Source: a virus
IMG/VR virus record: IMGVR_UViG_3300028584_000072
Span: 1-64,000 of that record
Reading direction: 5' to 3' (one strand)
Length of the DNA stretch: 64,000 bases
The first letter of the stretch is position 1; the number at the start of each line of letters is the position of its first letter. The position numbers were made by a program, and so were the translations under genes. A model generated the notes under the pieces. That model was not told the DNA's origin and did not search any database. It saw only the letters and a list, made by a program, of their open reading frames with translations. Shown here piece after piece: positions 2,202 through 48,329 of the stretch.

Positions 2202-3136
2202 AAATAGGAGATAGATATGGTAGGTGGTTAGTTTTATCCGAACCGTATGCCATAGAAGGTAAGAATAAAAGGGTTGATGTTGTTTGCGACTGTGGTACTA
2301 GAAAATCAGTAAGAGTCAGTTCTTTGCTTTCTGGAGACAGCACTTCTTGTCGATGTTTTGCAAAAGAAACTGCTAGGGAAAGAATGTCAACAAAAGGTGG
2401 TGAATCAAAACATTCGCTACACCAACGTTGGTATGATTTGAACAGACGTTGTTATGACCCACGAAGAAAGGATTATAAACACTATGGTGGTAGGGGGATA
2501 GAGGTTTGTGAAGAATGGCACAAAGATAATCCTGAAGGTTTCCAAAACTTTTTAAAAGATATGGAAAGTACTCATAAACCTAAGTTGGAAATTGACCGTA
2601 TAGATAATGATGGGAACTACTGTAAAGAAAATTGCAAGTGGTCTACAAGGTCTGAACAAGTACTAAATTCTAGGTATCTCGGTTCCAAAGTAGCTAATCC
2701 TAGATACTTAGATGATGGTGAAGATGTCCTTCATCTGGCGGCAATGGCGCGTAAACATGGGTTGAATGAGCGACTACTACAAGACCGCATAGGGAAGTTA
2801 GGGATGTCTGTGCAAGAAGCTCTTTCTTTACCAGTCAAGACGAGGCAGTATTTCTTAATATTTGACGGTAATGAGTATTCATTAAAAGATGTATTTACTA
2901 ATATATGCCACTTTATAAATCTTAGAACGAGAATTAAGGCTTCCACAGAGCAATTGATATACTACGTGTTCGGTGATAATGTGAGGGTAGAGGGTCTTGT
3001 GAATAAAAATAGGGTGGTTTTTGAAAAAGTTAACCTAGACTTATCAGGGTTTACTTTCAAATTACCGACAGTGTTCGAAGGGTTTACTAAGTATTATTCT
3101 GGGGAGTACAATCATAAGGAGTACTTACATGAGTAA
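2198..3136 (+). CDS. HNH-family (homing) endonuclease-like protein
   Basis: N-terminal Cys cluster (CDCG...SCRC). Core is RCYDPRRKDYKHYGGRGIEVCEEW...FQNFLKDM...IDRIDNDGNYCKENCKWST..EQ, the phage 'YGGRGI/DRIDN/NCRW' HNH family. Paralog of 6032..6835. Confidence 0.65.
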   Translation: MKIGDRYGRWLVLSEPYAIEGKNKRVDVVCDCGTRKSVRVSSLLSGDSTSCRCFAKETARERMSTKGGESKHSLHQRWYDLNRRCYDPRRKDYKHYGGRGIEVCEEWHKDNPEGFQNFLKDMESTHKPKLEIDRIDNDGNYCKENCKWSTRSEQVLNSRYLGSKVANPRYLDDGEDVLHLAAMARKHGLNERLLQDRIGKLGMSVQEALSLPVKTRQYFLIFDGNEYSLKDVFTNICHFINLRTRIKASTEQLIYYVFGDNVRVEGLVNKNRVVFEKVNLDLSGFTFKLPTVFEGFTKYYSGEYNHKEYLHE

Positions 3137-3668
3137 TACCCCATTTGAGCCTTGGTTGTGGTATCCAGATATTTGGCCTACTAAATCTAAGTTCTACACT
3201 TGGTTACGAGGTTCCTTACGTAAAGCTGTTTGGAATACATCTCCGATAAAGATTACATTTAAGAACCAGAATTGCTTTGCTCCGCCAGATGGGTATGACG
3301 GTAGAGCTAAATCTGGCAACTATTGCGCTTTATCGGGAGAATGGGAAGGTAAAAGTAAGCTTCAGGTTGATCACGTTTTAGGTAACGTACCGTTGAATGA
3401 AGAAGAAGATATACTTGGATTTATCCAGCACTTAATACCGCCACCGAACAGCTTACAATTGGTAAAAGCAGATGCGCATAAAATTAAGAGTTATGCGGAA
3501 AAACAAGGAATAACATTTGAGGAAGCTGTGCTAATTAAAAAATGCATAGAACTTGAAAACGATAAGCGAGATGTAGAGTTCATAAGGAATAGCGGGAAAG
3601 TGCCAGCTAGAAATAAGAAATCTAGGAGACTTCAACTAATTGAAATTATTAAAAGGTCTGAACGATGA
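3129..3668 (+). CDS. hypothetical protein with possible HNH motif
   Basis: LQVDHVLGNVPLNEEE...ADAHKIK gives a DH..N..H spacing. The assignment is weak. Confidence 0.35.
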   Translation: MSNTPFEPWLWYPDIWPTKSKFYTWLRGSLRKAVWNTSPIKITFKNQNCFAPPDGYDGRAKSGNYCALSGEWEGKSKLQVDHVLGNVPLNEEEDILGFIQHLIPPPNSLQLVKADAHKIKSYAEKQGITFEEAVLIKKCIELENDKRDVEFIRNSGKVPARNKKSRRLQLIEIIKRSER

Positions 3669-4234
3669 GAGATAGTATATTTAAGGTAGGCGATGTAGTA
3701 CCTACTAGAAACTGTGGGGATGTGGAGATTACCGAAATAATTGACGGTACAATGGTTTCGGTAATTTTTAAAAATACTGGGTTTGAAAGGGTTTGTCGAA
3801 AAAGCGATCTTTCGTTAGGAAAAGTGAAAGACCTGTTACAGTCAGGAAACTATGGAAGATATGTAGGTGTTGGTAATTACAACAGTACGGAACATACTGT
3901 GGCGTATAATGCATGGTACTACATTTTTGAAAGGGCAGGTGTACACGAGAACTATATCATTACTACTGTCGATGAGACATGGAAAGATTTCCAAGTGTTT
4001 GCCAAATGGTTTTACGAGAATCATGTTGACGGGTTTACTGAGATAGATAAAGATTTATTCGGTACAAATATGTACTCCCCAGACACTTGTGTTCTGTTAA
4101 ACAGGGAACTGAACATGTTAGAAAGAAATATGAGGGCACCATTGAATATCTTGGAAAAAACTAATAAGAACGGGAGTGTATCATACGTATCTAGATTTCT
4201 AGGCAGGTCTAAGTCTTTTTTCACAAGAAAGTGA
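3665..4234 (+). CDS. endonuclease-like/DNA-binding phage protein, paralog of 17814..18464 (apparently frame-broken at its 3' end)
   Basis: Shares W..F..F.KW....DKDL....YSP with 17814..18464. Homology continues in the +1 frame after a T6 run at 4215-4220 (see findings). Confidence 0.5.
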   Translation: MRDSIFKVGDVVPTRNCGDVEITEIIDGTMVSVIFKNTGFERVCRKSDLSLGKVKDLLQSGNYGRYVGVGNYNSTEHTVAYNAWYYIFERAGVHENYIITTVDETWKDFQVFAKWFYENHVDGFTEIDKDLFGTNMYSPDTCVLLNRELNMLERNMRAPLNILEKTNKNGSVSYVSRFLGRSKSFFTRK

Positions 4235-31090: not shown

Positions 31091-31710
31091 TATTCACCTG
31101 CCTTAGACTTGAGGGCATTGTCAAGTGCATCCGTATCCCCTGTAGTGCCAAATATAAATGTATCTTTAACAATGGTTCTCTCTGTTGAAGATTTACCACC
31201 ATTACTTGTAGAGCTACTGGTATCTTTTTTACCATCGACAACTCTTGTAGCTGATAACAGATTAACAGTCTCAGTGGTTGCTTTGCGTATCTGCACTATA
31301 GATATATCGAAGTATAAACTGTTAGATGACTCTGGATTGGCGGGGATAGATAGACTCTCCACGACACAATCATAATACGTGTCATACTTACTAACTAACG
31401 TGAAGGTTAGTCGTTCATCACGAAGTTTACGGAGGAAAGAGTACGCTTGAGGAATACGATCTGCTGTACGAGTGAGGGTGTCAGCTTGGAAATCATTAAT
31501 ACCATATTGACCAAAGATACCAGATACAGTGAAACGGTTATTTTTTAGCTGTACATGATCGGAGAATGACACGCCAGTTTCAACAGGATGTTCTGTAACG
31601 CTGTTGGAGAAGTCATGAGAAATACTCACAGTGCAATCTGCAAAGTATTTCTCACCAGCAATCTCACTCACGCCAGCTTTGAATTTATTAGCGACGATGA
31701 ATGTAATCAT
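31090..31710 (-). CDS. tail module protein (206 aa), function unknown
   Basis: ORF track. ATGA/TAATG-type coupling to the tape-measure exon 2 stop. Confidence 0.5.
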   Translation of the reverse strand: MITFIVANKFKAGVSEIAGEKYFADCTVSISHDFSNSVTEHPVETGVSFSDHVQLKNNRFTVSGIFGQYGINDFQADTLTRTADRIPQAYSFLRKLRDERLTFTLVSKYDTYYDCVVESLSIPANPESSNSLYFDISIVQIRKATTETVNLLSATRVVDGKKDTSSSTSNGGKSSTERTIVKDTFIFGTTGDTDALDNALKSKAGE

Positions 31711-32649
31711 TATTGACTTGTCTCCATTTGGTTGACGGCGTTGGTCGAGAGGGTTCTGTTGTCAACTGCGGCTGAAATAACTTTACTGAATTCACCGTCC
31801 TTGACTGTAACCGTTACATTAACTGGCTCTGTTGAACTAAAAGGATTCACTGCTCTAACAGCACGTTGCCATTGGTTCCCGAAAGAGCTAAAACCCTCCC
31901 TGTTGAAACCTACTTTACCCCCTAGAGTATCCGCACCAGTACCTAACAGAGAATCCTTACCTTTTAAAAAACCGTAGGTATCTTCAATTGCTAAAGGTAT
32001 TAATGCGAACCTTGCCATGTTCCGCATTAAGGCAATGAGTGTTACGTTAGCGCCACCTATGACATTTTGCAGTAGCTTGAATTTAGTAGCCAATATTGCT
32101 AATGTCCCCCCAGCACCTATGACAGCCCACATCTTACCACCAAGACCGAATGTGTCGGCACCTAATGCCCCCCATAACGTAGAGATGACATCTGTCAATA
32201 TTTCAAGAGGCGTTAATGCCAGTTTAATAGCACCTGTAAGTATGGAAATGGCCCCTTTAAATATACCGCCTAAAGCTTTAGCTAAAGGTTTTAATGTTTC
32301 GATGGAATCTGTAAATTTCTCAAACATATAAGAAAGTCCAGAGTCCATTCCACCCTTGAACATTTCCACTTTACCTTCGTCAAGTACGTTGAAGAATCGA
32401 GTCATCTCTGCTCTTGTTTTACCAAGCACAGCGCCCAGTGCCCCACCTTCCCTCGACATCCTTTTCATTTCTTCAGCAAACTTAGGTAAAACACCCTTCG
32501 ATTTAACTGAACCAGATTCTACGGCTTTAAAGAATGCGGTAATATCATCACCGTACCCTGCTGCACGAGACATAGCATCTACGCTGCCCCCTAGTGCCTC
32601 ACCCAGCTGCCCCGTAAGCTCCTCTTTATAGATTTGCCCTTTAGATGCC
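31710..32649 (-). CDS. tape measure protein, exon 2
   Basis: It starts (G)GCA TCT AAA GGG = ..ASKGQIYKEELTGQLGEALGG. Joined to exon 1 it gives ALQQ-M-ASKGQIYKEEL. C-terminal Gly-rich TM-like segments are typical of TMPs. Confidence 0.7.
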
Positions 32650-33547
32650 CATTTGTTCAAACTGAGTCGTTAATTCAGTCCCGCTTTATTTAAGCTGCTA
32701 TATGTTTCCATATAAGTTCAGACTATATCTTCACCCTCCAGTTAAGGAGGGGTTCCACGTTTCGAGCCACTTGGCTCTACTCCCCTTGGGGATAGTCGTT
32801 GGGAAGAATATCAGGGTATAACACAGTAATGTGTTTCCAAGTGGCACGATACCGAATTTTAGAAACTTGCTTCTGAGTGAGTCCCATACGTTTAGCTATG
32901 GATGCACTCGATGGTGGCTTCTTGCCAACATGTTCTACGAAATATATTCTACAAACTTCGTGAACTTGTTCTTCGGTCATACTGCACATACCATGATTAG
33001 TTCCAAACAAGATAAGGACTAAACCATCTCGCCTAGCATCTTCTAGGTTAGATAAGTTGGTTCCGTATTCAAGATTGGTATAATGGTTGTTTGTTTTATC
33101 GTTATCTTTGTGTTTAACGACAACAGTTTCACCATTGTAATCTTCGGTAGTGTAATCTAAGTGTGCCGGAAGTTCTACAAAACAGTCAGCTACCGCTCTG
33201 TGGACTTTCCTTGTAAACCTCTTACCTTTTAAACAGTATTGGAAATAAACGTAACCATCTTTGTTTATCCTGCAATACCATCTTGTCATTGTTTTTGAAT
33301 TAAATAGCTTACCGCATTGAGATACCAGAATCTTTTGGTATTCAGGCCAAGGTTTTAATTCACCCTCATAATCGTTCTGCTGATTGCCCATTTCTCCCTC
33401 CTATACTAAAAGGAAAGATCATATCACCAACTTTTCAAACTGTCAAGCTTATCGTCACCGATTACTTTGTAGTGTGGGATCTTTAGGATGTTCCAGCATA
33501 TAATGGAATTTTTCACTACACATTACTGTATAGGCAGACAACATTCT
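32650..33547 (-). mobile_element. group I intron (898 nt) with internal HNH homing-endonuclease ORF
   Basis: P1 pairs exon GCAGAU with intron GUCUGC (U:G at the splice site). P10 pairs AUGUU with the 3' exon GGCAU. The terminal base is G. It has GAAGAUAUAGUC (32721-32732), a J8/7-P7-like core, and a GAAA-capped hairpin. The junction restores the frame (1995 nt). Confidence 0.7.
32777..33391 (-). CDS. intron-encoded HNH homing endonuclease (HNH_3 type)
   Basis: KDGYVYFQ...KVHRAVADCF...VKHKDNDKTNNHYTNLEYGT. It has its own RBS GGAGGGAG inside the intron. Confidence 0.75.
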   Translation of the reverse strand: MGNQQNDYEGELKPWPEYQKILVSQCGKLFNSKTMTRWYCRINKDGYVYFQYCLKGKRFTRKVHRAVADCFVELPAHLDYTTEDYNGETVVVKHKDNDKTNNHYTNLEYGTNLSNLEDARRDGLVLILFGTNHGMCSMTEEQVHEVCRIYFVEHVGKKPPSSASIAKRMGLTQKQVSKIRYRATWKHITVLYPDILPNDYPQGE

Positions 33548-34602
33548 ATCTGCTGCAACGCACGAAACGCACGTTGATAATCTTCTTTTGATGCGCCAAG
33601 AACTGTAGCATATTCACTTACACCAGTAAACAAACTACGTTGCTGGTCTTTAGTTAGTGATGTCTTAGTTGCTATACTAAACTTAGTAAATTCTTTAGTC
33701 GCTGAACGTAAGTCAACACCTAACCTCATTGCTTCATCACGAATGAAACTCATGTGTTCAGCCACACCCGCATCATCTTTAGCAAACACTCTAGCTGATG
33801 CAGATAAACCCTCAAATTCCATCGCAGTGGTGGAAATATTCTGCACAACACTAAACGCCGTATAAGCAGCAGTTAATTGTACAAGCTCATTACGTAATGA
33901 TCTAAATGATACAGCATTAGCTCTAGTTACTCTGTCAGAGTTAACCATTTCATTCTTTGTTTCATTTAGGCGTTGTCTAAATGTTTCAAGAGCGCGAGGT
34001 TGGGTAGGGTCAATAACTCTTAATGCTTCTTCCTTAGCAGCACCAAGGCGACTTTGCATTTCATTACGTTCCGCTTGACCTATACTTCTTTGAGTGAAGT
34101 ATTGTCTCAGTTGACTCTCTTTAATCTTGTAAAAGTTATCAACACCAGCTTCAAAGTCTGTTCTATTTCTCTTAGCTCTAGCAGTTTGTTTAGCTTGCTG
34201 TGCATCATGCTTATCTTTTTGTTTAATAAGATTAGCGGCTGCTCTGTCCTCATCCCTTAACATCTGAGCAAACATTGTTCTACTTGCTGGACTAGATAAA
34301 GCTGTTGCTGGAAATAAATGAGCAAGTCTACCGCTCATGTCAGCATTTTTATTTGAAGTTCTTACATTACCACTATACTTCTGTGTAGCTGCTGCTACTT
34401 TCTTTTCAGCATTTACTGTAGCATTAGCTACTTTATTTATTTGTTGAACGACAGCATTAACTTTAATGGACTTATCCATACCTGTCATCTGTCGTTTGAT
34501 TGAAGTAAGTTTAGACTGGAATAACGCTAAGTTGTCCCATGATTTCTTATCAATGTTAAATCGGACTTTCCCGACTACACTACCGACTACGTTTTCTGCC
34601 AC
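33548..34602 (-). CDS. tape measure protein, exon 1
   Basis: GTG start, long alpha-helical sequence, ending ..QRAFRALQQ(M). The in-frame run-on into the intron stops after 8 codons. Confidence 0.7.
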
Positions 34603-43505: not shown

Positions 43506-44566
43506 TTACATATCAGCTAAAGCTATAGCTTTAACACTTATAGGAGGCGCAGAGAATGCGCCGAGTTTTGGGACTGTGTATATCTTAGCTGTGTTAAGGT
43601 AGTTGAATGCCGTGCCAACCGCATCGACGAAATCATCGTGTCTAGTACGTGTTGATTTGGTAACACCATCGAAGTTTTCACATTCTCTGTAGAAGTAATC
43701 TAGTGTCTTTCTATCCCAACCAGACTCAACTATAAATACCAAACCATTCTGTACTGCTGTAAAGAAAGGTTCTGATTTCTTAATCTTACTGGCTGTAGAA
43801 CTAGAAGTATCTTTCTTAGGGATTAAACCTTCGGACATGATATACTTTGAGAGGTATTCAAATGCTGCTGCACCCCCCGCACCGTTATCTTTAGGGATTA
43901 CAATGTGAACGTCACTACCATCACGTTTACCTTGAGCGACTATTGTAGCATCTCTGTCACCAGTACGCTTACGGTAATATTCACCATTAAGTAAGTAGTA
44001 ATACCCGTCTTTAGATTTGGCAACCAGAACACTTGCGGTGGCGTCACAGCCTACCGTAGCCGGAGTATCGTCAGCAGTTGATGCTAAGTCATACCCGCGA
44101 GCTAACATGCAGCCCATAGGCATCTGGGATGCTTTCTTTAGGTCTTCTCGTTTGAAGAAAATTCCAGTATCATCGGTAGAAGCCCAACAGCCCATGAGAA
44201 GCTGTTTACGTTTACCTTCTGGCATACTGTCTAGTTTCTTGCGATACGAACTATCGAGCGTATCTAGAGCCTCGTTGTCGTCCAATGTTGCAGGTATATA
44301 AGTGTAAGTCTCAGGGTCTTTACCCCAAGTATCTCTTAACTCTTGTTCATCCCAAGACGTGTACAAGACACCTTCAACGACAACGAAGTATCTAGTTTTA
44401 CCAGATAACTCTTTACGAGGAAAATCTTCATCATCTAAGTAGGGTTTAACCCATTCATAAATAAAACTGTTTGGTGAAGGGTTAAGAGTGCATCGAATTG
44501 ATTTGGGAATACCAGACATTGAACGGTTACGAGAACGTATTACGTCAAATTGGTATTGACTTCTAA
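43506..44566 (-). CDS. terL: terminase large subunit, exon 3 (nuclease domain)
   Basis: It begins (F)RSQYQFDVIRSRNRS...IRCTLNPSPNSFIYEWV. The C-terminal RNaseH-like nuclease region has GYDLAST and HDDFVDA. Confidence 0.75.
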
Positions 44567-44854
44567 CATTGTATTTACTACCACTCGCTACTGTGATAGC
44601 CATATGGCTTTAACTTTCGCTAAAGATTAGGTCATATCTTCACTTCTAAGAAGTGCCTTCCGTTTCGCTGCGCTTGCAGCTACGAGCATTGCTCTGACCG
44701 TCGAACGTTCTCCTATTCGGAGCTTCGCTGCTGATTGCCTAATACACTTAATTTTCAAACATTCACGCTCAGGTTTATTTCATCCTCACGTTGTAGTTTA
44801 AGTGTCTTAAAGGGTTTCCAGCAATTAAAAAGGTTTACCCTCAGCATAGAGTCT
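44567..44854 (-). mobile_element. ORF-less group I intron 2 in terL (288 nt)
   Basis: P1 pairs exon CUCAGU with intron GCUGAG (U:G). P10 pairs UCUA with exon-3 UAGA. The terminal base is G (44567). It has a P8-like hairpin plus GAAGAUAUGACC (44630-44641). Its core is homologous to intron 1. Confidence 0.65.
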
Positions 44855-45170
44855 ACTGAGCTTCTTCAAAAAACGCACAGTTAATTTCTGTACCGTACCA
44901 AGCATCTGCATCTTTATCTGTGCTAAGATATGAAAACGTAGTCCTTGCACCAGATGGAAATGTGATTGTTTTTTGTTGTTCGTTTACCTTAGCTTGACCT
45001 AAGAATCTACCTGTAGTATCTACGAGGTAAGGCATGTACATACGTTTTGCATCAACCCAAAGACCTTTATCAATCTCTGTAGATGTGGTACGATAGAACA
45101 CGCTAAAGTAAAGAGGATCATGAATACCTAGGAGATTTACGCAGAGCGCACCATAGGTCTTACCACCACC
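44855..45170 (-). CDS. terL: terminase large subunit, exon 2 (Walker A lysine to Walker B)
   Basis: GGGKTYGALCVNLL...ITFPSGARTTFSYL...INCAFFEEAQ. An in-frame TAG immediately precedes GGT at 45170. Confidence 0.75.
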
Positions 45171-45411
45171 CTATTAATTTTACAGTCGCTACACTGTTTC
45201 CACCATTTCTGGCGTAATTGGATCATATCTTCCATCATAAGATGGCTTCCTGTTTGGAGTAACCAATAGCTTGTTACCCTACGTCCGTACACTCATCGGG
45301 ACTGATCTCTACACGTTCTCTATCAAGAGCTTCGCTCGGTATTGCCTTCAACTAAATGGTAAGGTTTCACCGAATTAAGGAAGTTGATTAAGGTGGAACC
45401 AGTTATGGTTT
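45171..45411 (-). mobile_element. ORF-less group I intron 1 in terL (241 nt)
   Basis: P1 pairs exon GGUGGAGCU with intron GGUUCCACC (9 bp, U:G at the splice site). The terminal base is G (45171). It has a P8-like hairpin plus GGAAGAUAUGAUC (45221-45233). Confidence 0.65.
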
Positions 45412-45534
45412 AGCTCCACCGCCAAAGAACACAATACTTTCTTTGGCATTAGCAAACTCTAGCTGCTTAGGTTGTAATTTGATTTCAGGTATATTTCGGA
45501 TAGGGGTCTTTCTGATATTATGTTGTTTTGTCAT
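45412..45534 (-). CDS. terL: terminase large subunit, exon 1
   Basis: The RBS GAAGGA and the ATG 45534 both lie inside the 3' end of the HNH ORF. Sequence is MTKQHNIRKTPIRNIPEIKLQPKQLEFANAKESIVFFGGGA. Joined to exon 2 it gives the Walker A sequence FFGGGAGGGKT. Confidence 0.7.
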
Positions 45535-46231
45535 ATATTTCCTTCATAAACTTATCGAATACATCTCTCCGTCTGCTACCATTAACTATCCTACTAATTT
45601 GTGCAGCAGATAACTTATATTCTTCACATAAAGTTTTCTGAGGTATATTATTACAATGAGCTTTGATTAAAAGCTCTAAGATTAAATCATCATCGTGTTT
45701 GGCTGTTGTACGCTGTTCAAATTTATCTGATTTTACGATTCCAGTAATTTCAGAAAATCTACGTCCAGTTACAATCTCACTAATTGCATCAGCCCTGCAC
45801 TCTAAGTTATATTTTTCTTTAAGATCTTTATGTGAAGCACCATTTTTGTAGTCTGATACAACAGACAACATTTCTTCTTTAGTTAAAGAAGATAGTGTTC
45901 TTTTCCCAATACCATTAACGTAATAATGTACAGTATTGTGAGTGTAAGTACACCACTCTAAATTAGAGTAATGGTTATTACTTACGTTCAAATCTTTATG
46001 ATTTATAATTGGTAGATTATTTTGGTTATCTAGAAATGCTGAAGCGACTAAACGATGTACTCGTAGGTCGTGTCTAACTTTATTCTCAGTAAGATTTACA
46101 GCCAGATACCCATCTTTATCTAATTTAGGTTTCAGCATTTTTCCAGATTTGTAATAGCTATAAATATCTCCATATTCAGAGATTTTATACATAGGGAAAT
46201 CTGGGATAACTCGCCACTCAATATTGTTCAT
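45518..46231 (-). CDS. free-standing HNH homing endonuclease (I-HmuI-like: NUMOD4 + HNH_3 + HTH repeats)
   Basis: WRVIPDFPMYKISEYGDIYS, DGYLAVNL...RVHRLVASAF...INHKDLNVSNNHYSNLEWCT. The 3' end overlaps the terL start by 17 nt. Confidence 0.8.
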   Translation of the reverse strand: MNNIEWRVIPDFPMYKISEYGDIYSYYKSGKMLKPKLDKDGYLAVNLTENKVRHDLRVHRLVASAFLDNQNNLPIINHKDLNVSNNHYSNLEWCTYTHNTVHYYVNGIGKRTLSSLTKEEMLSVVSDYKNGASHKDLKEKYNLECRADAISEIVTGRRFSEITGIVKSDKFEQRTTAKHDDDLILELLIKAHCNNIPQKTLCEEYKLSAAQISRIVNGSRRRDVFDKFMKEIYDKTT

Positions 46232-46727
46232 TTAAAATCCTATTAATCAGTTACCCTCGCCTATTGGCGCAGAGTTAATCGCTTACTCTTAAGCAAAGAT
46301 AACTGTTAATGGAATCTTTGAGACTATTAATTCTTCAGACCTAAGTCTACGGAAACGCCAATTCCCGCTTCTAAGATATTACAACAAAACCCTCTATATT
46401 GCAAGAGGGCTTTATCTTCCTCACATTTCAAATCGTAATGCTTGAATATGTTTTGGATTAGTAAAACGAAACTCAACATGATGGCAACATCAGAGGTTGA
46501 GTGTTCTTATAACTTATTTCAACTTCACCGAATTAAACAATCTTACCAGCATTTCGCTTGACCTTGTTACAGGTGCTGTATGGAACCTTAGTGATACCTG
46601 AAGCCTATTATCTTCAGTGGGCTAAGGGACGGTTCCTCATTTTTGTTAACACCGATATTCACTCCTAGTGGAGTCTAGCGAATGCTAAATTAATCCCCCA
46701 ACCACTCCTGTGTGAAGGGGAAATTCT
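46232..46727 (-). ncRNA. 496-nt ORF-free, hairpin-dense segment (intron-like or leader RNA?)
   Basis: No ORF longer than 12 codons. Several extended hairpins are present. It shares a 13-nt motif UUAAUUCGGUGAA with terL intron 1 and has GAGGAAGAUAAAGCCC resembling the introns' J8/7 motif. Confidence 0.3.
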
Positions 46728-48251: not shown

Positions 48252-48329
48252 TGGTAGCCCCTGAAGGATTTGAACCTATCTACCTTTCCCTTATGAGGGG
48301 ACTGCTCATACCAAATGAGCTTAGAGGCT
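48252..48329 (-). tRNA. tRNA-Met-like (anticodon CAU; could be Ile2/fMet), CCA encoded
   Basis: Acceptor AGCCUCU/AGGGGCU, D arm GCUC..GAGC, anticodon loop CUCAUAA, T arm GA(U)AGG-UUCAAAU-CCUUC with one bulged U, then ACCA. Confidence 0.6.

Follow-up and report, generated by a model that had tools for sequence, protein, structure and literature searches.

Why does the reading frame of terL, the gene for the large terminase subunit, break off in the middle of its ATP-binding motif in the virus record IMGVR_UViG_3300028584_000072? In the stretch analysed here (positions 1 to 64,000 of that record, hereafter the window), the minus-strand terL frame that opens with an ATG at position 45534 reads MTKQ...ESIVFFGGGA, continues with K and P and then meets a stop; 241 nucleotides (nt) downstream of the last alanine codon, directly after an in-frame TAG, it reopens as GGT GGT GGT AAG ACC, i.e. 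GGGKT. The original prediction was that these 241 nt (45411–45171) form a group I intron without an open reading frame (ORF) that splits the Walker A motif. Reading the minus strand confirmed all its coordinates exactly: the ATG and the stop two codons beyond the proposed 5′ splice site, the length of the insert, the resumption behind the TAG and the terminal G. As detailed below, the segment is very probably a functional, ORF-less phage IA-type group I intron, part of a lineage residing in the Walker A codons of T4-type terL genes.

All features described for the window lie on its minus strand. Exon 1 (45412..45534; 41 codons) is collinear with the uninterrupted terL genes of two IMG/VR contigs (L004 and L005; L numbers designate the loci fetched for comparison) and of Alteromonas phage PT11-V22. 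Its last nine nucleotides, GGUGGAGCU (45420–45412), are the 5′ strand of helix P1, the 3′ strand being the internal guide sequence GGUUCCACC (45392..45400) of intron 1 (45171..45411), which starts AAACCAUAACU-GGUUCCACC. The two nonamers pair at nine of nine positions, as first noted, with the pair U(45412):G(45400) exactly at the junction, which is the arrangement expected of a group I P1; the probability of such a match by chance, computed as 0.375^9, is about 1.5e-4 per position. Guide and exon sequences change together in relatives in which the intron occupies other positions. At its other end the intron finishes with ...UAAUAG, the terminal guanosine (omega-G) being 45171, and a P10 of 3 base pairs is possible between ACU (45403–45401, just 5′ of the guide) and GGU, the first bases of exon 2. 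The predicted exon 1–exon 2 junction, 45412|45170, reads ...GGTGGAGCT|GGTGGTGGTAAG. Exon 2 (44855..45170) encodes GGGKTYGAL...CAFFEEAQ and ends with one base of the following codon, so that it completes Walker A and holds Walker B (FFEE). The ORF list shows no ORF of meaningful size within the 241 nt of intron 1.

We derived the secondary structure of intron 1 by hand. Only about 7 nt separate P1 from P3, hence there is no P2. The catalytic core (helices P3 to P8, 45221..45383) comprises P3 (45383–78/45251–46), P4 (45373–68/45341–36), P5 (45364–61/45348–45), P6 (45335–33/45315–13), P6a (45329–26/45321–18), the pseudoknot helix P7 (45307–03/45225–21), P7.1 (45302–299/45286–83), P7.2 (45279–73/45263–57) and P8 (45245–41/45236–32); it is followed by P9 (45214–10/45205–01), closed by a GAAA loop, and by the terminal hairpin P9.1 (45197–93/45186–82), with a conserved GUAGCG loop, these two spanning 45182..45214. 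The hairpin CCAUC-UUAU-GAUGG and the ensuing AAGAUAUGAUC, both singled out in the original prediction, are present and correspond to P8, then to J8/7 and the 3′ strand of P7: J8/7 is AAGAUAU, and AAGAUAU-GAUC is J8/7 together with that strand. Likewise, AAGAUAUGAUCC in intron 1 aligns to AAGAUAUAGUC, the J8/7 and P7 3′ consensus of the Rfam group I model RF00028. The minimum free energy fold recovers P1, P3, P4, P5, P6a, P7.2, P8, P9 and P9.1, with a folding-energy z-score of -2.2, which is modest when taken alone. The P1 placement given by Rfam, which lies in the exon, and its P6a, which is one base off, were rejected for the pairings supported by covariation. The presence of P7.1 and P7.2 would put intron 1 in subgroup IA, an assignment resting on those two helices; IA is the usual subgroup of group I introns in phages.

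The helices are supported by comparison with a large set of relatives. A covariance model built from four orthologs (R1) detected 112 full-length relatives in 100 sources (the window and 99 fetched loci), and covariation was computed over 105 distinct family members using covariance-model alignments (MAFFT misaligned the Rheinheimera Barba phages between P6 and P7.1). In the resulting alignment (A4), which was fitted to the model structure, 95.6% of the base-pair cells hold standard pairs, compared with 36–42% when the partners are slid by 1–3 columns, compensatory double changes occur in 51 of the 54 pairs, and none of 500 shuffles reached the observed pairing and covariation values. All 11 helices are 85–99.6% paired, and covariation is found in every core helix; P7.1 and P7.2 are 97.9% and 97.4% paired, respectively, and all 11 of their pairs covary. 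A second model (R2), made from 26 distant members only, with neither the window nor its close lineage, aligns to intron 1 over its full length with a score of 186.9 bits (E ~1e-49); the match has 45391 and 45171 as its precise ends and contains no non-canonical pairs.

Some points weigh against this interpretation. The score of intron 1 with RF00028, 37.0 bits in a permissive scan of a local 501-nt segment, is significant (E 6e-8), but in this test, which the original prediction suggested, it falls below the curated gathering score of 50, and the default gathering-threshold Rfam scan of the whole window misses intron 1 and reports another intron ~300 nt downstream, at 44608–44893 (67.5 bits), and a transfer RNA (tRNA). 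Note that orthologs of intron 1 score 39.7–48.9 bits with RF00028: the generic model under-scores this compact lineage, for which lineage models give 187 bits. Because A4 was fitted to the model structure, its pairing counts are inflated for all helices but P7; P7, which is not part of the model, thus provides the cleanest test, and it is 98% paired, with CG<->UA and UA<->CG exchanges. Finally, splicing in this phage is something that we infer from sequence features.

Relatives without the intron speak to the coding outcome. In L004 and L005, terL is an uninterrupted gene of 1497 nt whose product is 93% identical in amino acids (aa) to the spliced TerL of the window; the DNA at the junction, KESIVFFGGGAGGGKTYGAL, is identical to the predicted spliced junction and encodes FFGGGAGGGKT without any change in length, as expected if splicing rebuilds FFGGGA|GGGKT. 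The terL gene of PT11-V22 is also uninterrupted and of equal length, with the P-loop read straight through as FFGGGMGGGKT. The 499-aa product that had been proposed for the window is indeed obtained, with the amendment that a second intron (44854–44567) has to be removed too; exon 3 (43506..44566) then supplies the rest of the ATPase domain and the nuclease domain. The spliced protein matches the Pfam families Terminase_6N (47.3 bits, cut-off 22) and Terminase_6C (32.9 bits, cut-off 22.6), i.e. a T4-type TerL, Walker A and B included. Since G44 and K45 are invariant in an alignment of eight TerL sequences, as is E144, Walker A can be assigned to G39-x4-G44-K45-T46 on the basis of the motif and the Pfam match, which would put the intron 1 junction, A41|G42, inside it. 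Searches of solved structures with the single TerL sequence and with the 8-sequence profile gave no match, nor did a megablast of the terL region against GenBank phages; relatives of the region were reached via protein and pattern searches. Altogether, the group I intron reading of 45171–45411 is supported by covariation, model scores, intron-less relatives and a family member known to be spliced in Vibrio phage ICP1; frameshifting and an intein, two other conceivable causes of the split, are ruled out by the stops in the exon frames and by the ribozyme fold.

Members of the family are found in several named phages. The closest GenBank relatives are the Rheinheimera Barba phages, with a TerL 56% identical to that of the window and an orthologous intron at the identical codon (48.9 bits with Rfam, 116 bits with R1), which is present in all 115 GenBank Barba records. 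In Barba31A (MK719750; coordinates of the fetched locus L001), the record examined in detail, exon 1 (2133–2255) is followed by a 236-nt unannotated intron (2256–2491) and by the remainder of the gene (2492–3847), the predicted junction 2255|2492 being 52973|53210 of MK719750; gp102, a 'hypothetical protein', is terL exon 1, and gp103 is a terL called from an internal start and consequently devoid of Walker A. The other Barba records appear to be mis-annotated in the same way. The word 'intron' occurs neither in the Barba genome paper nor in the later transcriptome paper. In Vibrio phages VnaP (L137) and vB_VpaM_R16F (L138), the equivalent codon also hosts an intron of the family (VVIGGAA|GSGKSH), the guide of VnaP, GGUUGCACC, pairing with GGUGCUGCU at eight of nine positions; in the annotation, their terL is broken up into four or five genes, each labelled 'terminase large subunit', and the model finds three family introns in VnaP and four in R16F. 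In phage ICP1, the terL intron belongs to the same family (126 bits with R2), with the junction FYGGA|AGGGKS and a guide, GGUACCAC, that pairs with the exon sequence GUGGUGCU at eight of eight positions, again with a U:G at the junction. RNA sequencing, reverse transcription PCR and Sanger sequencing showed that the ICP1 terL transcript is spliced; its N-terminal exon is small and unannotated, and next to terL stands a free-standing gene for a T5orf172 endonuclease, an arrangement that the authors read as collaborative homing (Barth, Nguyen & Seed 2023, PMC10448857). Group I introns also interrupt terL in Bastillevirinae (5 of 52 genes) and in Twortvirinae (PMC11878797). The view that introns in terminase genes are uncommon thus needs revising: besides the split Bastillevirinae genes and the spliced ICP1 gene, introns of the P-loop family occur widely, in marine phages as well as in those of Vibrio.

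The second intron of the window terL (intron 2, 44567..44854) is 288 nt long, also ORF-less and of the same broad family; its insertion point is two codons past the glutamates of Walker B. Its P1 is CUCAGU/GCUGAG with a U:G at the junction, and it scores 67.5 bits with Rfam, above the gathering score (match 44608–44893), and 98 bits with R2. The predicted junction, 44855|44566, reads ...GCTCAGT|TTAGAAGT and yields the spliced peptide EEAQ|FRSQYQFD, the borders being fixed by comparison with L004 and L005 (EEAQYRS), PT11-V22 (EECQFRS) and Barba (DECQHRT), where the length is unchanged. Alternative 3′ borders with exon 3 starting at 44599, 44590, 44587 or 44581 were ruled out by alignment to Barba, PT11-V22, L004 and L005, which points to 44566. 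The same intron is found at this site in L073, and L132 and L134 also have a counterpart; the latter two carry three terL introns each, and the number of introns ranges from 0 to 4 among related terL genes. This TerL clade has further intron sites in the part of the gene that encodes the ATPase domain. One of them, occupied in L008 (~2512–2763), L009, L132 and L134, splits the codon for Trp131 (DADA-W|YGTE; P1 GAUGCCU/GGGUAUC). In Pseudoalteromonas phage J2-1 (L003, ~1800–2740), an HNH-containing terL intron lies a few residues upstream of Walker B; that site being upstream, its identity with the intron 2 site of the window was rejected.

The window contains three introns in total, two of them in terL. 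The third, at ~32661–33522 with its core at 32672–32864, interrupts the tape-measure gene and scores 47 bits with R2 and 38.4 bits with Rfam; it contains an HNH endonuclease ORF (32777–33391). The flanking ORFs, 33523–34602 and 31710–32660, match PHROG 5255 at positions 92–415 and 416–586, respectively, and are thus contiguous on that profile.

How the lineage came to lie in the P-loop codons may be approached through its exact insertion points. We searched IMG/VR and the JGI metagenomes for the exact 27-nt P7–P7.1 signature. All matches fall within the P-loop codons of terL, where they take up three positions spaced by 6 nt: (i) position -6, FFGG|GAGGGKT, with the pairing GCCGCCG/CGGCGGU (L006, L008, L009, L132 and L134); (ii) position 0, FFGGGA|GGGKT, with GGYUCCAC(C)/GGUGGWGCU (the window, L007, L133, L136 and the more diverged Barba); (iii) position +6, GGGAGG|GKT, with GCCGCC pairing to the second GGCGGU (L073 and L135). 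ICP1, whose copy is related, adds a fourth register. Two GGCGGU copies 12 nt apart are thus served by one guide, GCCGCC(G). In every copy whose 3′ end lies inside its contig, the same peptide is restored, with a U:G at the junction and a final G (L133 is cut by the contig end). The first bases of exon 2 can pair with bases just 5′ of the guide, with a compensatory change between L006 (GGAG/CUCU) and L008 (GGUG/UACU). The core of the window intron is 94.2% identical to that of L135 (position +6), 92.6% to that of L006 (position -6) and 82.0% to that of L007 (position 0), and variants of the P5 extension reassort between the position classes. As core identity does not follow position, the position switches must be recent relative to the divergence of the core.

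Directly upstream of terL lies a free-standing gene for a NUMOD4-HNH endonuclease (45518–46231; 237 aa), the 3′ end of which overlaps the terL start by 17 nt. The protein is I-HmuI-like: it has a Pfam NUMOD4 match and a weak HNH_3 match, belongs with PHROG 59 (HNH endonuclease) and matches the intron-encoded I-HmuI of phage SPO1 (PDB 1U3E, E 5e-14). Compared with L008 and L009, which have the intron and no HNH gene, and with L005, which has neither, the HNH gene is a discrete insertion between the terL start and a conserved 80-nt terminator-like element (46379–46458). This element, a hairpin GCCCUCU...AGAGGGU followed by a U-run, is 95–97.5% identical to its counterparts in L008 and L009, the flanks being 66–80% identical; in L008 and L009 it directly precedes terL, and in the window it precedes the inserted HNH gene. 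Farther upstream, a tRNA-Met (CAU) gene (48252–48329) is found ~2.7 kb from terL; L008 and L009 also have tRNA genes upstream of terL, two of them within ~300 nt of the terL start in L008.

The layout of the window, an ORF-less intron adjoined by a gene of homing-endonuclease type, is that of collaborative homing. A full-length HNH homolog occupies the same slot in 9 of the 24 loci with a P-loop intron, including distant ones in which the proteins share only ~30% identity, and these homologs end ~100–200 nt from the intron core. In two further loci, Barba and L042, only a C-terminal HNH remnant of ~55 aa is found (1927–2103 of L001 in Barba31A). The HNH gene is absent from all four intron-less controls, and no locus has the HNH gene without the intron; the slot is held by a 393-aa GIY-YIG gene in VnaP and R16F and by the T5orf172 gene in ICP1. 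Several considerations weigh against joint mobility: 13 of the 24 intron-bearing loci lack an adjacent endonuclease gene, the control set is tiny (four loci), and HNH and TerL diverge in step from the L132 lineage (86% and ~84% identity, respectively), so that vertical inheritance fits as well as recent mobility. Moreover, such arrangements may instead arise by turnover of endonuclease genes (Barth et al., PMC10448857). Taken together, that intron 1 moves along with the adjacent HNH gene by collaborative homing appears, from the gene arrangements, to be about an even bet.

We propose the following scheme for expression and spread. In the terL transcript, the guide GGUUCCACC would pair with the last nine bases of exon 1 to form P1; an external guanosine bound in P7 would attack after the U of the U:G pair, the terminal G 45171 would then dock, and exon 1 would be joined to exon 2. 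These steps follow established group I chemistry. Intron 2 would be removed in the same way, and the resulting messenger RNA (mRNA) would be translated into the 499-aa TerL, in which neither Walker A (GGAGGGKT) nor Walker B is broken; as intact TerL requires intron removal, its production would depend on ribozyme folding. The stop two codons into intron 1 would keep ribosomes out of the core. As for spread, when a phage whose terL lacks the intron infects the same cell, the HNH enzyme would cut or nick that terL close to the codons of the P-loop; with the donor as template, repair would then copy the HNH gene, exon 1 and the intron together. By disrupting the HNH target, the intron would protect the genome that carries it.

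Could the two parts of terL instead be separate polypeptides, or a decaying gene, with the insert a dead intron that is no longer removed? This might account for the sub-threshold Rfam score and would agree with the GenBank annotation of Barba, VnaP and R16F, in which the pieces are called as separate genes. However, exon 1 alone, once the K and P codons are counted, would give a peptide of 43 aa that stops in the middle of the P-loop, and TerL is indispensable for a tailed phage. Moreover, every core helix is intact, without non-canonical pairs relative to R2 and with compensatory changes across relatives, and the ICP1 member of the family is spliced in vivo (PMC10448857), which makes a dead remnant extremely improbable. 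If functional, the introns might be retained as regulators of packaging, a guanosine triphosphate-dependent 'on-switch' tying TerL synthesis to the energy state of the cell, as has been suggested for those Bastillevirinae introns that lie in genes of nucleotide and DNA metabolism (PMC11878797); that two introns flank the two ATP-binding motifs of a single gene would suit such a role. Yet the close relatives L004 and L005 have neither intron, and the patchy variation in intron number between related genes is more in keeping with selfish elements than with a conserved device for regulation, so that we regard the regulatory explanation as quite unlikely.

Alternatives to collaborative homing concern both the HNH protein and the intron. 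The former could be a packaging accessory that works with the terminase, its adjacency to the intron being coincidental: HK97-type HNH proteins such as HK97 gp74, encoded upstream of the terminase, assist cos cleavage (Barth et al., PMC10448857), and the window gene is directly upstream of terL and overlaps its start. But the gene is missing from L004/L005, L006, L008, L009 and L073 despite collinear neighbourhoods and is reduced to the C-terminal remnant in Barba and L042, its NUMOD4-HNH N-terminus matches intron-encoded I-HmuI, and the unrelated GIY-YIG and T5orf172 families fill the same slot elsewhere; an accessory function thus looks very unlikely. As for the intron, the lineage might shift position by RNA guidance, i.e. 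by reverse splicing into terL mRNA followed by reverse transcription and recombination, instead of or besides endonuclease homing. This would explain why exact copies of the P7–P7.1 signature are confined to the P-loop codons of terL, in three registers and with a guide matching the exon in each, why the guide GCCGCC(G) serves both GGCGGU copies, why core identity cuts across the position classes and how 13 loci can do without an adjacent endonuclease gene; analogous cases in ribosomal DNA are the best circumstantial evidence for the pathway, which has no direct experimental support (PMC3984707). Against it, a guide–exon match is also expected from DNA-level routes, for example microhomology-mediated repair in repeated GGN codons: terL being essential, only insertions that form P1 and splice survive, whatever the route. 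Furthermore, GGYUCCAC, the guide at position 0, has many bases that do not match GCCGCC, so that an extra re-specification step is called for, and no reverse transcriptase was seen near these loci, although no search for one was made. Reverse splicing and a DNA-level route both produce the register pattern, and the data cannot separate them; we hold transposition by RNA guidance to be possible, if on balance unlikely.

Intron 1 is not a new kind of system, a P-loop terL intron being already known and experimentally validated in ICP1. ICP1 shares with the window the intron family, the host gene (the TerL proteins are 34% identical), a short unannotated N-terminal exon, insertion in the P-loop codons, the lack of an ORF in the intron, an endonuclease gene directly next to exon 1, and a tape-measure gene with an HNH-containing intron (PMC10448857). 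It differs in that the neighbouring nuclease is of the T5orf172 and not of the NUMOD4-HNH type, an additional codon separates the junction from the Walker lysine (FYGGA|AGGGKS, against FFGGGA|GGGKT in the window), terL was reported with two exons, whereas the window adds a second intron after Walker B, and splicing was shown experimentally, whereas we infer it here. The ICP1 paper does not use the terms Walker A, P-loop or ATPase (PMC10448857). Collaborative, or trans, homing has been described for the psbA intron and F-CphI of cyanophage S-PM2 and for DNA polymerase introns of T3/T7-like phages (PMC3984707); these systems differ from the window in host gene and nuclease family, and cleavage at the point of intron insertion has been demonstrated for their endonuclease, whereas the HNH protein of the window is known from its sequence. 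The terL introns of Bastillevirinae and Twortvirinae are similar in that two or three may occur per gene and that some were shown to splice in vitro and in vivo, but they belong to Herelleviridae phages of Gram-positive hosts, average ~800 nt and in many cases contain endonuclease genes (PMC11878797). Mycobacteriophage TerL inteins hit the same motifs, with two P-loop sites one residue apart and another site in Walker B, but they rely on protein splicing and affect other TerL families, mostly Terminase_1 (PMC5050341).

Regarding the intron fold itself, the obvious comparison is with the phage introns that the Michel-Westhof classification places in IA2, namely those of T4 td, nrdB and sunY and of the SPO1 DNA polymerase gene. 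Intron 1 resembles them in its compactness, in the presence of P7.1 and P7.2 between P7 and the 3′ strand of P3, in the U:G at the 5′ splice site and in the terminal G; it differs in having neither an ORF nor a P2.

The family may also occupy other kinds of genes. In the distant members L028, L048, L051 and L105, the sequences directly 3′ of the intron resemble the T-arm and acceptor 3′ halves of tRNAs (GGTTCGAnTCC...), which suggests that these are group I introns inside phage tRNA genes. Another recurrent target is a gene encoding ...N-P-x-E-H-x-G or TTHFEQMG-like peptides just 3′ of the intron (e.g. L024:6536, L080, L098:3521, L029, L031, L037 and L039).

The existence of a compact intron family that scores under the Rfam gathering threshold has a practical consequence: such introns are routinely missed and terL is mis-annotated, so that TerL-based phylogeny, prediction of packaging type or phage detection is supplied with a truncated protein lacking Walker A. 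If RNA-guided shifting between registers were true, no natural example would show more clearly than this lineage that a group I intron can transpose under the direction of its guide inside a viral protein-coding gene. The natural series from no intron to intron only and to intron plus HNH gene, together with the three registers and the three nuclease types found in one slot, makes up a compact system in which collaborative homing can be tested against reverse-splicing transposition. Finally, intron 1, intron 2 and the mycobacteriophage inteins together depict the ATP-binding motifs of the packaging motor as a recurrent landing site of unrelated selfish splicing elements.

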